This document shows positions 319-13,793 of a DNA stretch of 23,664 nucleotides, piece by piece. A program made the position numbers and the translations under genes. The notes beneath the pieces are model-generated. The model made no database searches, was not told the DNA's origin, and saw only the letters and a list, made by a program, of their open reading frames with translations. The DNA comes from a virus (lineage: Duplodnaviria; Heunggongvirae; Uroviricota; Caudoviricetes). The DNA is taken from IMG/VR virus record IMGVR_UViG_2663763326_000004, positions 1 to 23,664 of that record, one strand, 5' to 3'. The first letter of the stretch is position 1. Each line of letters opens with the position of its first letter.

Positions 319-537
319 TTACATCCACATAATTTGCTGCCCTGACGGCAGCGGGTGCGGCCTTACGGCGTGGACTTCTCCCGGCTTCACAATGTATCGC
401 TGTACCGACTCATAAGTGATGAACGTGGCGCTGCAATTCACGTTCTGACACTGGTGATAACGCTCTTTTGTCGTGTCAGTGATATAGCGACTTGTACGCG
501 CATGTGCGGCATGCTGGCATAAAGGACAATGAAACAT
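319..537 (-). CDS. ogr: Late-gene transcription activator Ogr (zinc-finger, 72 aa)
   Basis: The ORF 319..600 contains MFHCPLCQHAAHARTSRYITDTTKERYHQCQNVNCSATF with a Cys-x2-Cys...Cys-x4-Cys zinc finger, which matches P2 Ogr as I recall it. The true start is the internal ATG at 537; the 21-aa upstream extension is not part of Ogr. Confidence 0.9.
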   Translation of the reverse strand: MFHCPLCQHAAHARTSRYITDTTKERYHQCQNVNCSATFITYESVQRYIVKPGEVHAVRPHPLPSGQQIMWM

Positions 538-618: not shown

Positions 619-1242
619 TCACTCATCATCTTCTGTTTCGTACTCCACATCAGAAAGCCTTACCTCAAGCTCCAAAGACGTCGTGAAGCCGCTATTATTG
701 AGAAAATGTGTAACCTTAGTGATGGTCCAGTCCTGCTCGTCTATGACGCGCTTAAAGCCTGACACTTTAACCGGTGTTTCCGTGTAAATATCTGCCCGTC
801 CGGTAGCCAGGCTGATGGAGAACTCTGCTACACCCCGTTGCAGTTTATCCCACTTCGCCTGAGCGGCACGCATGGCCTGTGCTTTCGTGGCATATACCGT
901 GGTCAGGGCAAAAACGTTGTCAGCCTCACCGGCCATGTATTCACCTTCGCGCGCTTCCGGTACTTTTGGCGCTTTCTTCTGCCTGACCGGTTTCGCTTTC
1001 GGGTGCTCCAGTGCGCGCAGGTGTTTCTCTTTCTTTTTGCGTTTCAGTTTTACCTTCTGCTTTTGCGGCTTCGGGTCTTTGGTGTGTAACCACTTTGCCG
1101 TTACGCCGGTGTAGGCTCCACGGTCAGCAATCGCAAAATGATGACGGTCGCCGTCGCTGCGGGTGATGGTGACCTGCTGGATTTTTTTACCGCTGGCCGT
1201 CACCCCCTGCCCCGCTTGCGTATTTTCATGAAAGGAGATCAC
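619..1242 (-). pseudogene. D: Tail protein D (late control gene D), C-terminal fragment, separated from its N-terminal half by the IS insertion
   Basis: The ORF runs from the IS junction to a stop at 619. Its first codon is a GTG formed partly by IS-terminal sequence, and its position between U and ogr matches P2 gene D. Confidence 0.8.
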
Positions 1243-1350
1243 TCAATAACTTCCATCGAGATCGGGTAATAACATTTGAACAGATCGCTGAATAACATCG
1301 ATGGAGATCACTTTTGACTCATTTTGTTATTCAGTGATCTCCATCAATGT
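1229..1350. repeat. IS21-family left terminal repeat region (multiple transposase-binding repeats)
   Basis: A terminal GGAGATCACTCAATAAC is followed by an internal inverted copy GTTATTCAGTGATCTCC and by ATCGATGGAGATCAC. Confidence 0.55.
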
Positions 1351-1409
1351 TATTGGAACTTCACAGGTGTGTTGATCTGTATCTTTTGCCATTCCGGTAA
1401 AGGATACCT

Positions 1410-2951
1410 ATGCCAACAGTTCCAATTTCTATGAGAAAACTTAAAGAAATTCTTAGGCTTAAATACGGTGTTGGACTCAGCCATCGACAAATTGGTCGTA
1501 GTCTTGCAATCTCCCCTTCCGTTGTATCCAGATATGCTAATCGGGCGGCTCAACTTGGCATAAAGCAGTGGCCCTTACCTACAGGATGGGATGATACAAA
1601 ACTAAAACATGCGTTCCTTCAGACCCAGGTTAAGATGAAGAAGCACTCTCTGCCTGACTGGGCTACAGTACACCGGGAACTGCGTAATAAATGCGTGACG
1701 CTGCAGCTACTCTGGGAAGAATACTGTGAGCGTAATCCAGGCGGTTTTTACAGCTATAACCATTACTGCCGGATGTACCGTGAATGGCTCAAAACCACTT
1801 CACCATCAATGCGTCAGGTACATAAAGCTGGCGAAAAACTTTTCGTTGATTACTGTGGACCTACCGTTGGCGTTACCGACCCTGAGACCGGAGAAATAAG
1901 AACTGCTCAGGTCATCGTAGCTGTTCTCGGGGCATCAAGTTACACATGGGCAGAGGCCACCTGGTCTCAGCAGCTTGAAGACTGGGTGATGAGTCATGTT
2001 CGCTGCTTCCAGTGGTTGGGTGGCGTTCCTGAACTTGTTGTTCCGGACAATCTGAAAAGCGCCACATCCAGGGCATGTAAGTATGATCCTGACGTTAACC
2101 CTACCTACCAGCAGATGCTTGAGCATTATAATGTCGCAGTTTTGCCTGCGCGGCCACGTAAACCGAAAGATAAAGCCAAAGCTGAAGTTGGCGTTCAGGT
2201 TGTTGAACGCTGGATCATGGCCCGAATCAGGCATGAGATCTTCTACAGCCTTGCATCGCTTAATCAGCGCATTCGGGAGTTGCTGGAAAGACTGAATAAC
2301 AAAATAATGCAGAAGTTGGGTTATTCACGTGCAGAACTCTTCATCCAGCTTGATAAACCCGCACTGAAGCCTCTTCCTGAAGCCAGTTACAGTTACACCC
2401 TGGTGAAGAAAGTCAGAGTTCATGCCGATTACCACGTGGAAATCGACAAACATTACTACTCGGTTCCATGTTCGCTGTTAGGCCAGCAACTGGAAGCATG
2501 GATCTCCGGAGAACTGGTAAGACTCTTCAATCAGGGGCAGGAGGTTGCTGTGCACCCGCGCAAGCGTACTTATGGCTACAGTACCCGCAACGAGCACATG
2601 CCTGAAGCTCATCGACAGCATGCCACCTGGACGCCAGAGCGTCTTCTGGAATGGGCGGGGCACATAGGCAGTGAAACTCATAGTTATGTGCTTCATATAC
2701 TGAACTCTCGTCCACATCCGGAACAAAGCTATCGCTTCTGCCTTGGACTCCTGAACCTTCATAAAAAATACAGTAAAGCCAGACTTAATGCAGCATGTGC
2801 AAGAGCTCTGAAAACAAAGGTATGGCGTCTGTCAGGTATTAAATCGATCCTGGAAAAAGGTCTGGATAAACAACCTGTTCAGGATCCAAAACCAGATCTG
2901 TTATCCACGATGGAACACGAAAACGTACGCGGCAGTGAGTATTACCACTGA
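1410..2951 (+). CDS. istA: IS21-family transposase IstA (513 aa)
   Basis: N-terminal helix-turn-helix region followed by an integrase-like catalytic core. It is immediately followed by istB, the typical IS21 arrangement. Confidence 0.9.
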   Translation: MPTVPISMRKLKEILRLKYGVGLSHRQIGRSLAISPSVVSRYANRAAQLGIKQWPLPTGWDDTKLKHAFLQTQVKMKKHSLPDWATVHRELRNKCVTLQLLWEEYCERNPGGFYSYNHYCRMYREWLKTTSPSMRQVHKAGEKLFVDYCGPTVGVTDPETGEIRTAQVIVAVLGASSYTWAEATWSQQLEDWVMSHVRCFQWLGGVPELVVPDNLKSATSRACKYDPDVNPTYQQMLEHYNVAVLPARPRKPKDKAKAEVGVQVVERWIMARIRHEIFYSLASLNQRIRELLERLNNKIMQKLGYSRAELFIQLDKPALKPLPEASYSYTLVKKVRVHADYHVEIDKHYYSVPCSLLGQQLEAWISGELVRLFNQGQEVAVHPRKRTYGYSTRNEHMPEAHRQHATWTPERLLEWAGHIGSETHSYVLHILNSRPHPEQSYRFCLGLLNLHKKYSKARLNAACARALKTKVWRLSGIKSILEKGLDKQPVQDPKPDLLSTMEHENVRGSEYYH

Positions 2952-2962
2952 TACGGGATCCA

Positions 2963-3712
2963 ATGATGAATCATCTTTACGAACAACTGACCGCACTTAA
3001 ACTCACCGGCTTCCGTGATGCGCTTAAAAAGCAACTTGCTCAACCGGGCACATACCAGGAGCTGGGCTTCGAAGAACGCCTGTCATTACTGACAGCAGAA
3101 GAACTAACCTGCCGTGAAAACAGGAAGGCAGAGCGTCTGATCAAACATGCACGGTTCAGACTTAATGCTGAGTTATCAAAGCTGGATTATCGTAACAATA
3201 GAGGGCTGGACAGGGCCCTCATCCGTTCACTCAGTCAGGGAAACTGGTTAACCCTGAAACAAAATATTTTACTGACCGGGGCCACCGGCAGCGGTAAAAC
3301 GTTCCTGGCATGTGCACTTGGTCATAATGCCTGCCGACAGGGATACAAGGTCTACTATTATCGCCTTAAAGCGCTGATGGAACAGTGCTATCAGGGGCAT
3401 GCTGATGGAAGATACAGCAAACTTTTGACCAGGCTGAATAATAGCGATCTGCTGCTTCTGGATGACTGGGGGCTGGAACCTCTCTCATCAGAACAGCGTA
3501 GCGACCTGCTGGAAATAGTGGATCTGATGTACCAACGAGGCTCAATCATCGTAGTGAGCCAGTTGCCGGTGGAAAACTGGTACAAAATGATCGGAGACTC
3601 CACACATGCGGATGCCATCCTAGATCGACTGGTTCATGGCAGTATCAAGATCGAACTTAAAGGAGAATCAATGCGGAAAATACAATCTCCGTTGACCGAA
3701 GGAGATCAGTGA
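2963..3712 (+). CDS. istB: IS21-family helper ATPase IstB (249 aa)
   Basis: Walker A motif GATGSGKT and Walker B motif LLLLDDWG, in a DnaC/IstB-like protein directly downstream of istA. Confidence 0.9.
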   Translation: MMNHLYEQLTALKLTGFRDALKKQLAQPGTYQELGFEERLSLLTAEELTCRENRKAERLIKHARFRLNAELSKLDYRNNRGLDRALIRSLSQGNWLTLKQNILLTGATGSGKTFLACALGHNACRQGYKVYYYRLKALMEQCYQGHADGRYSKLLTRLNNSDLLLLDDWGLEPLSSEQRSDLLEIVDLMYQRGSIIVVSQLPVENWYKMIGDSTHADAILDRLVHGSIKIELKGESMRKIQSPLTEGDQ

Positions 3713-3744
3713 AGGTAATTTAAAAACGGTTCTGTGAAAGTGAC

Positions 3745-3785
3745 ACGAACCGATCTCCATCGATGTTACTCACCGATCTCCTTCA
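3745..3785. repeat. IS21-family right terminal repeat region
   Basis: Two direct copies of CCGATCTCC (ACCGATCTCCATCGATGTTACTCACCGATCTCC) at the right IS end, inverted relative to the left-end repeats. Confidence 0.55.
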
Positions 3786-4368
3786 CGGTAATACGCACCG
3801 CTTTGAGAAACAACAATTTTCCCATTTTTACCGACACCTCACCGCCGTTGCGTTCTGCAAGACGGGTCAGGAATTTCGCATCAGACTCCTGCGACTGGTC
3901 GATGTGCGGGATTTTAATTCCGGCCAGTGACGGAGCGACACTGGCTTCCAGCCTGTTACGGGAGGCTATCGCCTCAACAATCGCACCGAGCGTGGTGTCA
4001 TGCCAGGAGCCTTCACGGCGGGAATTGAGCGTCCCGCGGAAATCTGCACTCCGGGCGCGGATGGTGACCACATCCGGCGCGCCCCGGTGTTCAACCTCAT
4101 CAACGGTGAATTTCCCTTTGCATACCAGGGCAAAACCTTTCCAGCCGATATACACCGTCAGGACAGCGCCACGAACCGGCAGCCCGACCTGCCCGTCGGC
4201 ATCGTTCAGTTCAATATCAAGCTGGTCAGCCTCAAAGCCCCGGTTATCCGTCAGGGTCATGCTCATCAGACGGTCACTGATATTGCCGGTAATATCCCTG
4301 CTGTCGAGCATCAGCATGTAATCCGGCGTCAGCGTACTGCCTGCATCAAATGTCAGTGCATCCAGCAT
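3766..4368 (-). pseudogene. D: Tail protein D, N-terminal fragment truncated by the IS21-family insertion
   Basis: Starts MLDALTFDAGSTLTPDYMLMLDSRDITGN, with its ATG overlapping the U stop (TAATG). The last few codons (KEIGE-stop) are read from IS-terminal sequence. Confidence 0.8.
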
Positions 4369-8316: not shown

Positions 8317-9507
8317 TTAATTGCTGTTAACCGAGGTGACCAGATTTGCCAGGTATTTATCGGTAATACGCTGGCGCAGGGTCAGGTTTTCGAGAGGAGG
8401 CACCGGGGTATAGTCGTAGTCGATATACAGTTTGCCGGCCTTGAGGGTTTCCGCATCGTTGGATTCTTCGCTAAACCAGCAGGTCGCATCCACGATATAG
8501 CCGTTTGTTTTCAGCTCACGGAATTTGGCATTGATGCCGTCAACGATGTCGCGAATCAGCGTTGCGGTGATGGGCTTGTCCACCGCCCACATGTGCGCCT
8601 CAGCCATCGTGTCGGCCAGCACCTGCGCGGTGCGGGTGTAGTTTTCAAAGAGGAACAGCGGGTCATCAGAGCAGGTACGGTTACCCCAGAAGCGGAAACC
8701 GTCACGGCGAATCAGCGTTGTGACACCTGACTCGTTCAGCAGGTCAGCATCGGTGCCGGACTCCTGCAAATCCCAGAATACGGACGCACTGATGCCGGTA
8801 ACACCGTTTACCCCGACGTTGGACAGCGTTTTATGCCAGCCCTGCTCCTGGTCGATTCTGGCACGCAGACCCAGCGCACGGGCGGTGGCATACGCGGTGG
8901 CGGTGGTACTGGTGACCGTATCCCATGCGAGGAAATCCGGCCAGATTACCATCAGCTCACGCTGGCTGAAATTCTGGCGGTAGGCTTTCACCTCGGAAAT
9001 GGTTTTACAGCCCCATGCGCTGATATACCCGAAAGCGCGCAGCTTCTGGCAGACTGATGCCAGTGCAACAGCCACCTCTTTGGTGTCCAGTCCCGGCACA
9101 CCGAGAATACGCGGTTTAACACCGGTTACCGACTCTGCCGCCAGCAGGGCTTTCAGTCCGGTATACTGACCGTTTTCGTCAGTGGTGCCGATGATATTGG
9201 AAACGGTCTGCGCGAGTTTCGTTTCTTCGTCGTCGCCGGTGCCGTCTTCCACACGCACGACAACGGTGACCGGTTTTGACTGGTCAGCGATGGCCTGCAG
9301 CGACGCCGCCAGCGTGCCTTTTTTACCGGCCTTTGCAATTGCGCTCTGCACATTGGTAATCAGCACAGGTTTATTGAGGGGGAAGGTTTCCGCATCCGCA
9401 TCGCTGGCCGTGCAGACCATGCCGACAATGGCAGTGGATACAGTGGAAATGACGCGGGTGCCGTCGTTAATCTCCAGCACCTGCACGCCGTGATGATAGT
9501 CACTCAT
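8317..9507 (-). CDS. FI: Contractile tail sheath protein FI (396 aa)
   Basis: 396 aa starting MSDYHHGVQVLEINDGTRVISTVSTAIVG, with a GGAG ribosome-binding site 8 nt upstream. Matches P2 gpFI. Confidence 0.9.
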   Translation of the reverse strand: MSDYHHGVQVLEINDGTRVISTVSTAIVGMVCTASDADAETFPLNKPVLITNVQSAIAKAGKKGTLAASLQAIADQSKPVTVVVRVEDGTGDDEETKLAQTVSNIIGTTDENGQYTGLKALLAAESVTGVKPRILGVPGLDTKEVAVALASVCQKLRAFGYISAWGCKTISEVKAYRQNFSQRELMVIWPDFLAWDTVTSTTATAYATARALGLRARIDQEQGWHKTLSNVGVNGVTGISASVFWDLQESGTDADLLNESGVTTLIRRDGFRFWGNRTCSDDPLFLFENYTRTAQVLADTMAEAHMWAVDKPITATLIRDIVDGINAKFRELKTNGYIVDATCWFSEESNDAETLKAGKLYIDYDYTPVPPLENLTLRQRITDKYLANLVTSVNSN

Positions 9508-9600: not shown

Positions 9601-10081
9601 GATAAAGAAAAGGCGAGCAATCAGCCCGCCTGCCTTGATTTGTACTCTTTCAGTTTCCAACTGACAAATTACGTAACCAAAACTCTGTCAAATCTGACAG
9701 TCTGCTTTGAGCGAAAAACAGGTATTGAGATACATAATAAATCATCTCAATTTTCAACTTTTCTGCCACTTAACATCTTGAGTAGTAAATAGTACAAAAC
9801 TATCTACTGCCGAAGGGCTCTAGGAAGTATGGTTTCTGCACAATAAGACTTATATCGGCTCACGGGGAGCCAAAAGATATTCATTGCCTAGAATTTGCAG
9901 ATGAGGTGGTAATCTGTACTGGGGCGGTACTGCAACAGCTATGTATATTTCCACTGCGGTAATCTGTACCAGCAGGTAGAAGCTGTTATACATCACCGCC
10001 CCTGTAGTGCTAATCCGGAGATAGCACTACTCTCATCAAGGCTTGTTCTTCCATAAACCGCAATAGGTGTTAGTTTTAGCC

Positions 10082-10939
10082 TTAATGTAAAATTAACAAT
10101 TGATTCAGACGCTTATGTAATTTTGTGGTTCTAAATGTATGATGATCGTAACTCATACGCATATAACTATCTATCTCATCCAGACGCATGTTCTTATTTA
10201 CAGATATATCAGTTTCATACATCATTTTTAATATACATGTAAAGTCATGACCATTGCATATAGAAAAATGATCTGGCGACATTAATTCTAATTTACGCAT
10301 TTCATTATATAAATTTTTCGCATTAAAATCCTTATCAGTACGACTCCTGCTAAGCACATGATTTATATATTTGGTTTCATCAACTACAACATCTGTCCTG
10401 TTAATACTTACAAAATTCCTGTAATTCATTCCTTTGAAATTAAGATTGCTATGTGTAAGATAATTGTACCATTTGAGAAGTCCGATTTTATAGCATGCAC
10501 AAAGGATGTTCATCTTTACATCCTGACAGAATATATCGGCCAATTCCCCTTGAATTAATTTTCTATCTGTATGTGACATAATGAATTTATCAACCGCACC
10601 ACCTTTTACTAACATCATTTCAAGGTCATGAGCATCAGTATAAAAAATCCCCTCGTGATTTATTCCGCTTAACTCATCAAAGTCCGCGTCACATACACCA
10701 TACACAGCATTATTACCTGCACGACGTAATTGACTAACAGCCAATATTACTTCACGTTTTCCATTTTCAGGTGATTCATAAATGATTCTATTATCAAGCC
10801 GATATGCATTGAAAAATCGGATATCTGAAATGCCCTCAACCACAATCAATATACAACGTTGATACATTTCATTTCTGAATAAAAGCATCATACTACTCAA
10901 CCAATCATCTTCGCGAACAGCATTGCGTAATGACATCAT
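10082..10939 (-). CDS. DUF4435/TOPRIM-like (OLD-family-type) putative nuclease, AriB-like effector of a PARIS-like system (285 aa)
   Basis: N-terminal ILIVVEGISD (TOPRIM glutamate) and downstream VYGVCDADFDE (DxD metal-binding motif). GC content is very low, and the ATG follows the upstream ATPase stop with no gap (TAA ATG). Confidence 0.7.
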   Translation of the reverse strand: MMSLRNAVREDDWLSSMMLLFRNEMYQRCILIVVEGISDIRFFNAYRLDNRIIYESPENGKREVILAVSQLRRAGNNAVYGVCDADFDELSGINHEGIFYTDAHDLEMMLVKGGAVDKFIMSHTDRKLIQGELADIFCQDVKMNILCACYKIGLLKWYNYLTHSNLNFKGMNYRNFVSINRTDVVVDETKYINHVLSRSRTDKDFNAKNLYNEMRKLELMSPDHFSICNGHDFTCILKMMYETDISVNKNMRLDEIDSYMRMSYDHHTFRTTKLHKRLNQLLILH

Positions 10940-12184
10940 TTACTCGTTTCCTTCTGAAAGCTGTTGGCTTTCATTTCTATTTCTAATCATTTCATATAGA
11001 TCGTATGTTAATTCCCAATTCTTACTAATTACTTGTGGTGAATGAGTAGCAATAATGACCTTTTCATACTTGTTAATCTTTTGTATTTTTTTGAGAGAAT
11101 CCAAGAAAGTTTGTTGCCAGGCGACATGTAATGATATTTCTGGCTCGTCTATAAGAATTACTTTTTGTGAAACAAAATCGAAAATCAAATTAAAAAGAAG
11201 AACTATTTGGTTCTGTTCACCTGATGAAAGCAAATTACGATCAATAACATCGCCATTGTGACTTTTGAAATAAAATCCGTTATCTCTATCAATCATCACT
11301 TTTTTAAAAGCTAAAACCTTTTCTTTCAAAATTGATTCAAATAAATCAATTTTTTGATGTAATGTCTGAAACGGTGACAATTTTCCAAGGGCATCTTCAA
11401 TATATAGATCCAACACACTTAGATATTCATTGCTACTATAAAAACTTGTGCTTTTTTGAGGCATTAGCTCGTTATCAGCCTGAATAAGGCCATAACGCAT
11501 ATAATGTCGACGTTTATCTTGAATACCATTTAAGCGATCTTGAATATTTTCTGATGAAAATCGTTTTGATTGCTCTAAACGCTCAAATAATCGAATAGGA
11601 AATGTAGCGTCTAATTTTTGTGATAATGCAGCGGAATCATCTTGTGCATTTTTCATTAAATATTTTAATTTTCTAGCACATAAGTCAATGACTGTTTCAT
11701 CAACAGCTTTGACTTGTAATCGATCTGCACATATAAAAGATACGTCTTCTTTCGATGTAATATGACTTAACACATCCGAAGATAATGGTTTATCAGTTCG
11801 TAATTTTTGTTTTGGTTTAACATCCCCCCTATGCAAGCTTACATAAAATAACTCTTCCATAATAGATTCATCTGTCTGTAACTTGAGTCTTTCTTCCGTT
11901 CTGTTTCCTGAGCTATTATCCAGATGATTCAATATTAAACCATCTTTATTGGTGTCATGAGTAATTGAAACAGAGCCACCTTGAAAATCAATTTTAATAA
12001 AATCAAAATTAAGTTTACAGAGAGCATTTAATTCATTTGTAAGAATACTATTGATGATTTTAAGAATCATTGTCTTACCATATCCATTTGGACCAGTAAG
12101 CATAGTAATTTCATTGTTATCCAAGGGAATTTCATAATCAAGGAGACCAAATAGTTTTTTTACTTTTAAATGTATCAATTTCAT
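10940..12184 (-). CDS. ABC/SMC-like ATPase (AAA_15/AAA_21 type), AriA-like sensor of a PARIS-like system (414 aa)
   Basis: Walker A GPNGYGKT, an ABC-signature-like LSSGEQ, Walker B VILIDEPE and an H-loop IIATHSP, with a long helical insertion between the nucleotide-binding halves. AT-rich codon usage is unlike the flanking phage genes. Confidence 0.75.
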   Translation of the reverse strand: MKLIHLKVKKLFGLLDYEIPLDNNEITMLTGPNGYGKTMILKIINSILTNELNALCKLNFDFIKIDFQGGSVSITHDTNKDGLILNHLDNSSGNRTEERLKLQTDESIMEELFYVSLHRGDVKPKQKLRTDKPLSSDVLSHITSKEDVSFICADRLQVKAVDETVIDLCARKLKYLMKNAQDDSAALSQKLDATFPIRLFERLEQSKRFSSENIQDRLNGIQDKRRHYMRYGLIQADNELMPQKSTSFYSSNEYLSVLDLYIEDALGKLSPFQTLHQKIDLFESILKEKVLAFKKVMIDRDNGFYFKSHNGDVIDRNLLSSGEQNQIVLLFNLIFDFVSQKVILIDEPEISLHVAWQQTFLDSLKKIQKINKYEKVIIATHSPQVISKNWELTYDLYEMIRNRNESQQLSEGNE

Positions 12185-12199
12185 ATCAACCTCGCAGAC

Positions 12200-12280
12200 G
12201 ATGAATTATAACCATTTATTACATGGCGCATATGAAATGCAATATATCATTGTCATGAGTTGCATTTCAAACATATGCCC
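12200..12280 (-). promoter_or_regulatory. Candidate sigma70 promoter(s) with an embedded inverted-repeat operator, upstream of the ATPase gene
   Basis: On the coding strand, TTGAAA, an 18-nt spacer and TATATT, followed by a second perfect TATAAT about 20 nt before the ATG and a GAGG ribosome-binding site. The inverted repeat GAAATGCAA-N17-TTGCATTTC brackets the first -35 and -10 elements. Confidence 0.4.
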
Positions 12281-13214
12281 CAACATCAATGCTAAATCCG
12301 TGATTAAAATTAATAAACTTCTGGTTTTTGCAAATAATTTCTTGCCCTAATAGTTTGGAAATACCTCTTTTAAATTTATAGTGAATAATATTACGCCCAT
12401 TTAGTTCTCTCTTTGCAGAACTGAACATGTCGGGAGCTACTGTGTGGAGAAACACTGAAACGATCGTTAGTGAATATTTGCACACTGGTGATAGTACTAA
12501 ACAGCCCTTTGGTCATGTCCGAAAAATAGTGACTCGTACAACATGATCGATGTGATAGCATTTATGACAGTGAAACATAACAATCACCTTTGAACATTTT
12601 CCATACGTGCATTATACCTATTAAATCTAAACAAAACAAATAGATATAAAATATTCATCCGCGTATCTTCATGCTCTCATATACCACATACGGGAGCCTT
12701 AACATCAAGTACTAAGCACGTCGTGAAGCTGTTTCCGTTAAGACGACTTTGCACTACTTGACTGATTAGCCATGCCTGCTTGTCTATCACACATTTAAAG
12801 TTTTTCATCGCTAACGTAGTTAGTCCATTCCCTTGAATGGCGTTTTACCAGTCTATATATGACAAATATCGTACTTTTTCCACATTCAGTCCAATTCATT
12901 CACCGCTCCCGATTCACCTACAACACCCTCTCAACGACGTTCTCTGTACCTGTAATACCGGCGCAAATTGCGTCGAAAATGTCGTTCTGCATCGCATAAA
13001 CCTTCATCAGATTTGGCCTACAATGCAGCGAATAGTCTGAAATTAAAAACCGATGATGATGGACTGTACTGTTCATGCAAGTCTGGTCGCTCTGTGCCTC
13101 ATCAAGGAATGAATAATGATCTTGGCGACGTCTACTCTTGGCACAGAGCGGACTGTCAGATTAGTTTTTACTCTGTGCCATAGATGAGTAATCTCACACC
13201 AGATCTAATACAAT

Positions 13215-13793
13215 TTATTGCGGCATTTCCGGCCATTCTATATCCGGAGCATCTTCCGGCTGAACGCGATTCAGTAACACACGGTATTTTTTCCAGTGTG
13301 TCAGGCTTAACTTTTCTTCCTCGGTAGCCATATCTAAATCGACAGCATCCTGCAGCGTGGCAATGATTTCACCTGCATATGCAATCTGCTCTTTCTTCTG
13401 AGACTCCGCCGCTCTGACAAGCGCATCACGCTCTGCATTCTCATCATTCACCCACGCATTTCCGTTCCATTTCTGATAATCCCCCTCCGGGGAAATGGCT
13501 GTCACGTCTGGAGGTAATGCGCCAAGTTCAGAAATATAAATGGCTGCTCCCGTTTTCGTTTCGTAGACAGTCTTTCCGCGATGATCTTCCATCAACTCCC
13601 ATTTCATTTCATCTGCATTGAAAACGGCTGCATAACCAGCAGGAATATCAGGTGGTGCAATATCTGTACTGTTTGCAGGCAGGCCAGTATACGGCGGAAT
13701 ATATGCATCACTTTCGCCAATAAACTCATTGGTTCCATCAAGTAAATTGAAAACGCGGATAGTTTGTGCTTCTGCACTCATTCTGAAAGCCAT
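13215..13793 (-). CDS. G: Tail fiber assembly protein G (192 aa)
   Basis: Directly downstream of H with its ATG overlapping the H stop (TAATG). Size and position match P2 gpG. Confidence 0.8.

Follow-up and report, generated by a model that had tools for sequence, protein, structure and literature searches.

A probable PARIS-family defence module in the G-FI slot of a P2-like Escherichia coli prophage

What is the function of two low-GC genes that lie between the tail fibre assembly and tail sheath genes of a P2-like prophage of E. coli? The pair is part of a stretch of 23,664 nucleotides (IMG/VR virus record IMGVR_UViG_2663763326_000004, positions 1 to 23,664; this whole stretch is called the window below), and in an identical E. 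coli record its products are annotated merely as "AAA family ATPase" and "DUF4435 domain-containing protein". An original prediction, made from the letters of the window, had proposed a prophage-borne defence module related to PARIS, a system that consists of the ATPase AriA and the nuclease AriB, and had left the choice between a known PARIS subtype and a divergent variant to later homology searches. The analysis presented here makes it likely that the two genes form an anti-phage module of the PARIS family (class 4 OLD-like), which a P2-like E. coli prophage carries, as cargo of low GC, in its variable G-FI ("fun") slot. The PARIS family, its diversity (11 clades in the published phylogeny) and the G-FI hotspot were already known; new is this particular pair as a member of the family.

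As had been noted from the sequence, the two genes follow each other on the minus strand. The junction between them is GAGTAAATGATG, and thus the TAA stop codon of the ATPase gene directly abuts the ATG start codon of the nuclease gene, in agreement with the list of open reading frames (ORFs). The guanine-plus-cytosine (GC) content is indeed low, 0.31-0.35 across positions 10001-12500 versus 0.55-0.60 in the flanking phage genes. The predicted location in the Z/fun hotspot of P2 also held, as the cassette occupies the slot between genes G and FI in which reference P2 has fun. The fun locus is a second defence-enriched hotspot of P2-like phages (Vassallo 2022). The coordinates of all features are collected in Table 1.

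The profile searches that had been proposed for both proteins gave the matches expected of a PARIS pair. The ATPase matched Pfam AAA_15 over the full length of the model (1-374 of 374; 73 bits, E = 4.5e-20) as well as AAA_21 (62.4 bits), and the nuclease matched DUF4435 (89 bits, E = 5.3e-25, model span 3-230 of 238); the AAA_15 and DUF4435 matches are far beyond chance. With PADLOC, AriA was the top match for the ATPase (E = 1.9e-25), while AriB was the only model matched by the nuclease (E = 2.6e-21, 75 bits). Rousset et al. (2022) call PARIS on the basis of an AAA_15 match of at least 32 bits or an AAA_21 match of at least 27 bits, encoded adjacent to a DUF4435 match of at least 27 bits. 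With the scores given above and its adjacent genes, the locus is a PARIS locus under this rule, and DefenseFinder- or PADLOC-type rules would label it as such automatically. In NCBIfam, nothing above cutoff was obtained for either protein; the best model, far below its cutoff, was PtuA, and Eco8 was also far below. In PHROGs, both proteins fall in phage families of unknown function.

On the predicted models, structure settles the relation of both proteins to the PARIS subunits. The top 15 fold matches in the PDB of the AlphaFold (AF2) model of the ATPase (predicted local distance difference test, pLDDT, of 81) were all AriA chains (E ~2e-15, template modelling (TM) score 0.58-0.65), with Rad50, retron PtuA and Septu PtuA trailing at TM 0.35-0.45. 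For the nuclease, the AlphaFold model (pLDDT 89, predicted TM score, pTM, 0.86) had just two significant matches in the whole PDB, the AriB chains 8ux9_A and 8v46_D, to which it could be aligned over its full length (E ~2e-7, TM ~0.55) at an identity of 12-13 % in the fold alignment. At the sequence level, phmmer connected the ATPase with solved AriA over the C-terminal lobe only (E = 4.7e-11).

All ATPase motifs quoted in the original prediction (Walker A, a signature-like sequence, Walker B and the H-loop) are present, as are the two motifs quoted for the second protein, IVVEGISD (with E35 and D39) and CDADFDE (with D84, D86 and D88). In the family alignments, the motif residues of both proteins are invariant or nearly so. 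The published PARIS structure gives E26, D30, D88, E90 and E122 as the catalytic residues of AriB. In a joint alignment with all three known AriBs, E35, G36, D39, D84 and E107 of the window nuclease are invariant, as is G230, and D86 stands opposite E90. A sample of 55 sequences with 20-60 % identity showed E35, G36, D39, D84, D86, T101, D105, E107, G230 and H231 to be invariant. The subfamily to which the nuclease belongs carries TDxHDxE and GHD motifs of its own, which are conserved there and are extra relative to the type AriB. When the nuclease family was searched exhaustively with a profile, a threshold of E <= 1e-3 gave 3,948 cluster representatives and one of E <= 1e-30 gave 815; nearly all have a length of 280-300 amino acids (aa).

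Both genes are under purifying selection, unlike the pseudogene debris that flanks them. The ratio of nonsynonymous to synonymous substitutions (dN/dS), estimated by the Nei-Gojobori method against the copies from an E. coli island, Morganella and Klebsiella, was 0.25, 0.25 and 0.10, respectively, for the ATPase; the corresponding values of the nuclease were 0.08, 0.19 and 0.06. Homologues of the two proteins share contigs and have diverged to matching extents, and the two genes have stayed adjacent in E. coli, Klebsiella, Morganella and Kosakonia as well as in a Yersinia phage. The stop and start codons abut or overlap in the window and in the related loci L009 (the E. coli island), L012, L002 and L018; in Kosakonia they are separated by a gap of 2 nucleotides. 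In the genome of E. coli GCA_021890435.1 (L023, 3755-5000), the ATPase is called as two ORFs of 122 and 277 aa while the nuclease is intact. This would be a natural "AriA-broken" allele, which by analogy with the type system would be expected to abolish defence.

A number of observations weigh against the PARIS assignment. The solved AriA and AriB are, overall, only 12-17 % identical to the window proteins. Neither phmmer with the nuclease nor the family profiles built from 13 and 55 sequences retrieved AriB from the PDB sequences; the lone marginal PDB match of the 55-sequence profile was the Toprim domain of RNase M5 (E = 0.17). When compared with AriB of the type system, B185, using hhalign, the 13-sequence profile gave E = 0.05 and the 55-sequence profile E = 0.005, in the Toprim core only. 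The attempt at a direct link to solved AriB by phmmer or profile search thus failed, and the connection rests on hhalign over the Toprim core and on the fold search. For the ATPase, several PADLOC models of PtuA (Septu) nearly equalled AriA (E = 1.5e-24), and the protein, with 414 aa, is 50 aa shorter than AriA (464 aa). B185 AriB reads tRNA via R28 and R236 (D-loop) and via K60 and K64 (anticodon loop); the two arginines stand opposite I37 and N229 of the window nuclease, and the two lysines are without a clear counterpart, K61 being differently placed. An acidic trigger like Ocr is not indicated, given the shorter ATPase and a variable loop that is not net basic. Lastly, a literature search retrieved no paper naming the accessions of the pair and no experimental work on the pair or its subfamily.

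The distance from the type system was put into perspective by scoring known AriBs on the same models. With Pfam DUF4435, the window nuclease obtained 89 bits, AriB of PARIS-1 62 bits and that of a PARIS system from a P2 hotspot 54 bits, and hmmscan of B185 AriB (Rousset et al. 2022, Table S2A) against the current Pfam DUF4435 gave nothing at E <= 0.1. The PADLOC AriB model gave 75 bits for the window nuclease, 56 for PARIS-1 and 35 for B185 (PARIS-2). Because the known AriBs score below the window nuclease, the type AriB of B185 is the outlier of the family. Using the AriB sequences of Rousset et al. (2022; Tables S2A and S5), hhalign gave E = 0.024 with AriB of PARIS-1 from E. coli O42 and E = 3e-4 with that of the P2 gpA-gpQ-hotspot PARIS, which among the three E. 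coli AriBs known is the nearest by profile. The Toprim motifs were in register in the comparisons with B185 (55-sequence profile), O42 and the gpA-gpQ system. Judged from these scores, the window nuclease is a mainstream DUF4435 member, and its distance from the type system mostly reflects the outlying position of the type AriB. The question of subtype or variant therefore has a divided answer: by profile score the pair is mainstream DUF4435/PARIS, yet its identity to two validated E. coli systems is 12-17 %.

The type system, PARIS-2 of B185 (8UX9, 8V45-8V49), also consists of an ABC ATPase and a DUF4435/Toprim protein encoded by two genes on a mobile element of the P2/P4 family. The folds of both subunits (predicted models in the case of the window), the Walker A lysine, the Walker B glutamate and the five acidic Toprim positions are common to both. 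B185 PARIS differs in that it occupies the psu-int slot of P4 rather than the G-FI slot of P2, in that the trigger-loop region of the window ATPase is unrelated to it in sequence, and in that the TDxHDxE and GHD motifs are extra in the window subfamily. Of the arginines in the AriB interface, R28 is opposite I37 and R31 opposite I40, beside R41; the details of the interface between ATPase and nuclease may therefore differ from those in B185. PARIS-1 of E. coli O42, validated under ptet (Rousset et al. 2022), is likewise an AAA_15 plus DUF4435 pair that matches Pfam DUF4435 directly; it is located on a P4 satellite and its identity is 17 % in a MAFFT alignment. The gpA-gpQ PARIS (WP_001297422 and WP_001297419; Rousset et al. 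2022, Table S5) shares with the window pair its residence on P2-like prophages but uses the other P2 hotspot and belongs to another clade (13 % identity). Relatives from Klebsiella, Yersinia and Morganella are of the same clade and have the same two coupled genes (37-85 % identity); they differ in insertion sites and expression signals.

Other systems were compared as well. AbiL of Lactococcus (AbiLi/AbiLii) is a two-gene abortive-infection system that pairs an ABC ATPase with a Toprim protein. PADLOC AbiLi matched the window ATPase weakly (E = 4e-12, rank 23), and AbiLii did not match the nuclease; according to the literature, AbiLii and AriB are without significant sequence similarity to each other. 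The P2 Old protein (class 1 OLD), itself a cargo of P2, and GajA of Gabija (class 2) follow the same logic of an ABC ATPase combined with Toprim. Both are single fused polypeptides with TOPRIM_OLD, whereas the genes in the window are separate and no window protein matched TOPRIM_OLD (PF20469). GajA was matched by PADLOC solely over the C-terminal lobe of the ATPase, and no helicase neighbour corresponding to GajB was present among the window ORFs or in the annotation of the identical record. PtuA of Septu and the PtuA associated with retrons are AAA_15 ATPases with similar profile scores, but the partner in the window is DUF4435/Toprim rather than HNH, and their folds match at TM ~0.4. As to a PtuB, Pfam and PADLOC gave no HNH match in the nuclease and there is no other conserved ORF. 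Parts of an Ec78/Eco8-type retron were not found either: the window contains no reverse transcriptase ORF and no Rfam retron match.

Residues 61-140 are the most variable part of the ATPase in the family, with a column majority of 0.29-0.43 versus 0.6-0.9 elsewhere. This segment evolves fast: omega was 0.42-0.64, compared to 0.05-0.19 for residues 141-414. Within it, the loop 107-128 was modelled with low confidence (pLDDT < 50), and its position matches that of the pore loop of AriA. In the published work on PARIS, this loop (residues 113-124) senses the trigger, and pore loops are proposed to diversify toward different triggers. The hypervariable segment is predicted to be the trigger-sensing region of the window ATPase, which would match this idea of pore-loop diversification. 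Its net charge is about zero across the family, which points neither toward nor away from Ocr, an acidic DNA mimic, as the trigger. A "basic pore loop" as a sign of an Ocr-like trigger was dropped for the same reason.

In the type system, AriA sequesters AriB in an A6:B3 complex, and AriB, once released, cleaves tRNA Lys-UUU, Thr-UGU and Asn-GUU. Activation by the anti-restriction protein Ocr gave PARIS its name. By homology to B185 PARIS we infer that the window ATPase would oligomerise and form a complex in which the nuclease is held inactive. A phage-encoded trigger would be sensed via the hypervariable region around residues 61-140, and its ATP-dependent binding would release the nuclease. 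The freed enzyme is expected to dimerise and to cut an essential host nucleic acid by two-metal Toprim chemistry. The target may, by analogy, be one or more tRNAs, in which case translation would stop and the infection would be aborted, giving the presumed defence phenotype. The catalytic mechanism is probably shared with the type system, to judge from the conserved residues, while trigger and substrate may differ; they are not transferable from the type system because the sensor is hypervariable and the tRNA-reading residues are not conserved.

These same differences lead to a serious alternative, which amounts to variation within the family. The pair could belong to PARIS and yet employ another chemistry, cutting DNA as OLD and Gabija do or an RNA other than tRNA-Lys/Thr/Asn, in response to a trigger that is not an anti-restriction DNA mimic. 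The residues with which B185 AriB reads tRNA have not been kept, and D102, H104, D105, H231 and D232 are extra invariant or nearly invariant acidic and histidine residues that the type AriB lacks. The sensor segment, unrelated in sequence and not net basic, agrees with such a change, as does the report that escape mutants of a lactococcal PARIS fall in a non-Ocr protein. DNA cleavage of the OLD type is disfavoured by the fold, of which AriB and not OLD or GajA is the nearest solved full-length relative (the OLD C-terminal region gave E > 1), and by the missing TOPRIM_OLD match; the marginal match of the broad profile to RNase M5 is to an RNA enzyme. We regard the alternative as possible, if somewhat doubtful.

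The PARIS module proposed here is widespread. In 13 of 5,426 complete E. coli genomes, among them those of O25b:H4-ST131 strains, the same 3.75 kb were present at 99.9-100 % identity. The identical copies are in a P2-like prophage beside pflB and ogrK, with the cassette between the tail fibre assembly and tail sheath genes. The exact proteins were found on 632 (nuclease) and 530 public contigs; in the 24 longest that were read, the slot was G-FI without exception. A relative from Klebsiella (76 % identity) is present on at least 1,000 contigs, in P2-like prophages, where it occupies the hotspot between gpA and the portal gene gpQ, the locus surveyed by Rousset et al. (2022). The Yersinia peduovirus vB_YenM_31.17 is the only sequenced phage with a relative (37 % identity), located between the CI repressor and integrase genes. 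Sequenced peduoviruses contain varied cargo in the G-FI slot, and none has this pair there. The related cassettes in L002 (5757-7861), L018 (3730-5879) and the window (10082-12184) are 37-76 % identical and occupy three P2-type variable sites in three genera. The E. coli island copy adjoins genes for an nSTAND nucleoside triphosphatase (NTPase) and ArdC, the Morganella copy is at a prophage end next to umuDC, and that of Kosakonia is beside helix-turn-helix (HTH) and TacA-like genes.

Scraps of earlier surroundings are attached to the cassette. The non-coding leader upstream of the ATPase gene consists of decayed genes of a phage lysis module; only positions 13128-13210, next to the leader, are common to other P2-like prophages. 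Remnants resembling gpX and a lysozyme occur in the same order upstream of the Morganella copy, and the cassette apparently was once located downstream of a phage lysis module, from which scraps were carried into the G-FI slot. Directly after the nuclease stop codon follows a trailer of ~390 bp, a LysR fragment with stops and a frameshift; at the nucleotide level it has 75 % identity with lysR genes that are intact on several plasmids (tblastn E = 1e-17 to 1e-19). The scraps on both sides accompany the cassette, being 93 % identical in the E. coli island copy (window 12970->9694) and 84 % in Morganella; they are not found with the Klebsiella copy. A small gene or regulator in the 1-kb leader was considered and rejected in view of the gpX- and lysozyme-like remnants; none of the small ORFs in leader or trailer stays open across copies.

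A structured RNA or third component in positions 9694-10081 was mostly rejected as well, the region being the decayed LysR fragment. The Klebsiella, Yersinia and Kosakonia copies lack it, and searches of the downstream stretch with Rfam and for tRNAs gave no match. The stretch does fold far better than shuffled sequences (z = -5.3 in sense and -3.6 in antisense orientation), and inspection by eye suggested a compensatory helix. The intact plasmid gene, at z = -1.1, does not show the excess folding of the decayed copy.

A further scrap was seen in the E. coli island. Positions 10820-10884 of L009 resemble window positions 9663-9727 (65 bp, 78 %), a part of the P2 backbone just upstream of FI that includes the palindrome CTGTCAAATCTGACAG at window positions 9685-9700. 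In L009 these 65 bp lie 3.6 kb past the cassette, on the far side of a gene for an nSTAND NTPase-metallophosphatase. This position is a hint that the cassette and the NTPase gene once shared the G-FI slot of P2.

Candidate expression signals, which are consensus matches only, are situated at most 90 bp upstream of the ATPase start codon. Of the related copies, only those of the E. coli island and of Morganella have kept them. The terminator-like hairpin between the cargo and FI lies in sequence that is common to other P2-like prophages.

A cassette that moves between many mobile contexts and takes scraps of its former hosts along could also be a selfish addiction (toxin-antitoxin) unit, in which the ATPase neutralises a nuclease toxin and stabilises the carrier element, any defence being incidental or absent. 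The description of Pfam AAA_21 names a toxin of a toxin-antitoxin system, AriA was called an "antitoxin" by the PDB depositors, and the HTH and TacA-like neighbours in Kosakonia could be read in the same way. In the type system, however, deletion of either single gene is non-toxic and leads to loss of defence, by which a classical toxin-antitoxin system is excluded (Rousset et al. 2022). A hypervariable ATPase surface with raised omega would be better suited to recognising external ligands that change than to a toxin-antitoxin interface that is fixed, and the G-FI slot is a validated defence hotspot. Addiction is thus an improbable explanation.

It is even less probable that the pair is a decaying, functionless relic in a defective prophage. 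The prophage does show damage. Its tail gene D (VgrG/Pvc8 family) is split by ISEc12, an insertion sequence (IS) of the IS21 family, and it therefore probably cannot make tails; in other strains the same prophage has taken up IS21 or IS66 elements elsewhere (tube gene, tail fibre). The flanks of the cassette are pseudogene debris, and in one strain, as described above, the ATPase itself is split (122 + 277 aa). By contrast, both ORFs in the window are intact with all catalytic motifs present, dN/dS is 0.06-0.25, and neither the 632 and 530 contigs with the exact proteins nor the identical locus in 13 complete genomes would be expected of a relic, which makes this reading very unlikely. A Septu-like or other AAA_15 system, with a PtuA-type ATPase whose true partner is elsewhere and the DUF4435 gene as an unrelated neighbour, would account for PtuA being within a few bits of AriA in PADLOC and best (below cutoff) in NCBIfam, but it can be set aside as effectively refuted because the ATPase-DUF4435 pairing is conserved in every copy, in five genera, while an HNH (PtuB) gene or a conserved third gene is lacking and the ATPase fold matches AriA (TM ~0.6) rather than PtuA (0.36-0.42).

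Two further features of the prophage may be mentioned. The gene ogrK lies directly beside host pflB in the identical record, and the start of the window is therefore the boundary between prophage and chromosome. The H-type tail fibre contains a run of His-x-His repeats which we take to resemble the metal-binding HxH motifs of phage fibre tips.

Table 1. Positions of the PARIS-like gene pair, its motifs and neighbouring features in the window
Feature	Position	Strand	Basis or remark
ogrK, homologue of the P2 late-gene activator	319-537	(-)	at prophage end
Split gpD with ISEc12 (gpD fragments 619-1218 and 3799-4368; istA 1410-2951; istB 2966-3712)	619-4368
P2 FI-type tail sheath gene, flank	8317..9507	(-)	ORF list, annotation of identical record
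Terminator-like hairpin and T-run between cargo and FI	9611..9631	(-)	pattern match only
Trailer: decayed fragment of LysR-family regulator, aa 182-290	9693..10068	(-)	homology, tblastn
ariB-like DUF4435/Toprim nuclease gene, 285 aa	10082..10939	(-)	ORF, Pfam, PADLOC, AF2 fold, dN/dS
N229-G-H-D232, C-terminal part of DUF4435; G-H common to AriB R236-G-H	10244..10255	(-)	G230, H231 invariant
T101-D-A-H-D-L-E107; E107 = AriB E122	10619..10639	(-)	T101, D105, E107 invariant; D102, H104 >= 90%
Toprim motif 2, D84-A-D86-F-D88 = AriB D88-R-E90	10676..10690	(-)	D84, D86 invariant; register of AriB
Toprim motif 1, E35-G-I-S-D39 = AriB E26...D30	10823..10837	(-)	invariant with three known AriBs and 55 sequences
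ariA-like ABC/SMC-type ATPase gene, 414 aa	10940..12184	(-)	ORF, Pfam, PADLOC, AF2 fold, dN/dS
H-loop IIATHSP, I377-P383	11036..11056	(-)	I378, T380, H381, S382 invariant
Walker B VILIDEPE, V342-E349; E347 = AriA E393	11138..11161	(-)	D346-E349 invariant; aligns to AriA VLIDEPEISLH
ABC signature-like LSSGEQ, L319-Q324	11213..11230	(-)	L319-E323 invariant; aligns to AriA LSSGERQ
Hypervariable, indel-rich ATPase segment, residues 61-140	11765..12004	(-)	column majority, pLDDT, omega
Walker A GPNGYGKT, G31-T38; K37 = AriA K39	12071..12094	(-)	invariant in 20-sequence family alignment
Non-coding leader, decayed phage lysis-module genes	12185..13127	(-)	DNA homology, tblastn remnants
GAGG, Shine-Dalgarno candidate	12193-12190	(-)	sequence reading
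TATAAT	12210-12205	(-)	consensus match
Candidate promoter TTGAAA-18-TATATT with upstream TG	12270..12241	(-)	best promoter-like site of the region, 10/12 matches
Lysozyme-like remnant	12478-12525	(-)	tblastn
gpX (tail protein X)-like remnant	12981-13089	(-)	tblastn
P2 G-type tail fibre assembly gene, flank	13215..13793	(-)	annotation of identical record, Caudo_TAP
H-type tail fibre gene, 872 aa	13793-16411	(-)	C-terminal ~120 aa with His-x-His repeats (SGNHTHTV...)

In conclusion, profiles, PADLOC, folds and the documented hotspot support the reading of the pair as a PARIS-like prophage-borne module with a presumed role in defence. The locus is a further documented example of how one defence cassette moves between the variable sites of P2-type phages, and it is of relevance for predicting the host range of therapeutic phages in ST131 and Klebsiella. 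It is quite possible, though we advance it only tentatively, that the DUF4435 subfamily of 815 clusters (E <= 1e-30) forms a PARIS branch that is distinct in function, with a trigger of a non-Ocr type sensed via residues 61-140 and with a different nuclease substrate. If so, the substrate would be other tRNAs, another RNA or DNA, and phages would need escape routes unlike the tRNA-Lys/Thr/Asn decoys of T5.

What is understood of the PARIS mechanism comes essentially from a single E. coli system, B185, and by profile score this system is at the edge of the family. The pair described here is nearer to the centre of the family, is widespread and occurs in lineages of clinical importance, ST131 among them. 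For these reasons it can serve in practice as a second reference for PARIS, which may be used to separate the general features of these systems (sequestration, release and Toprim chemistry) from those that are specific to a clade (trigger and target).

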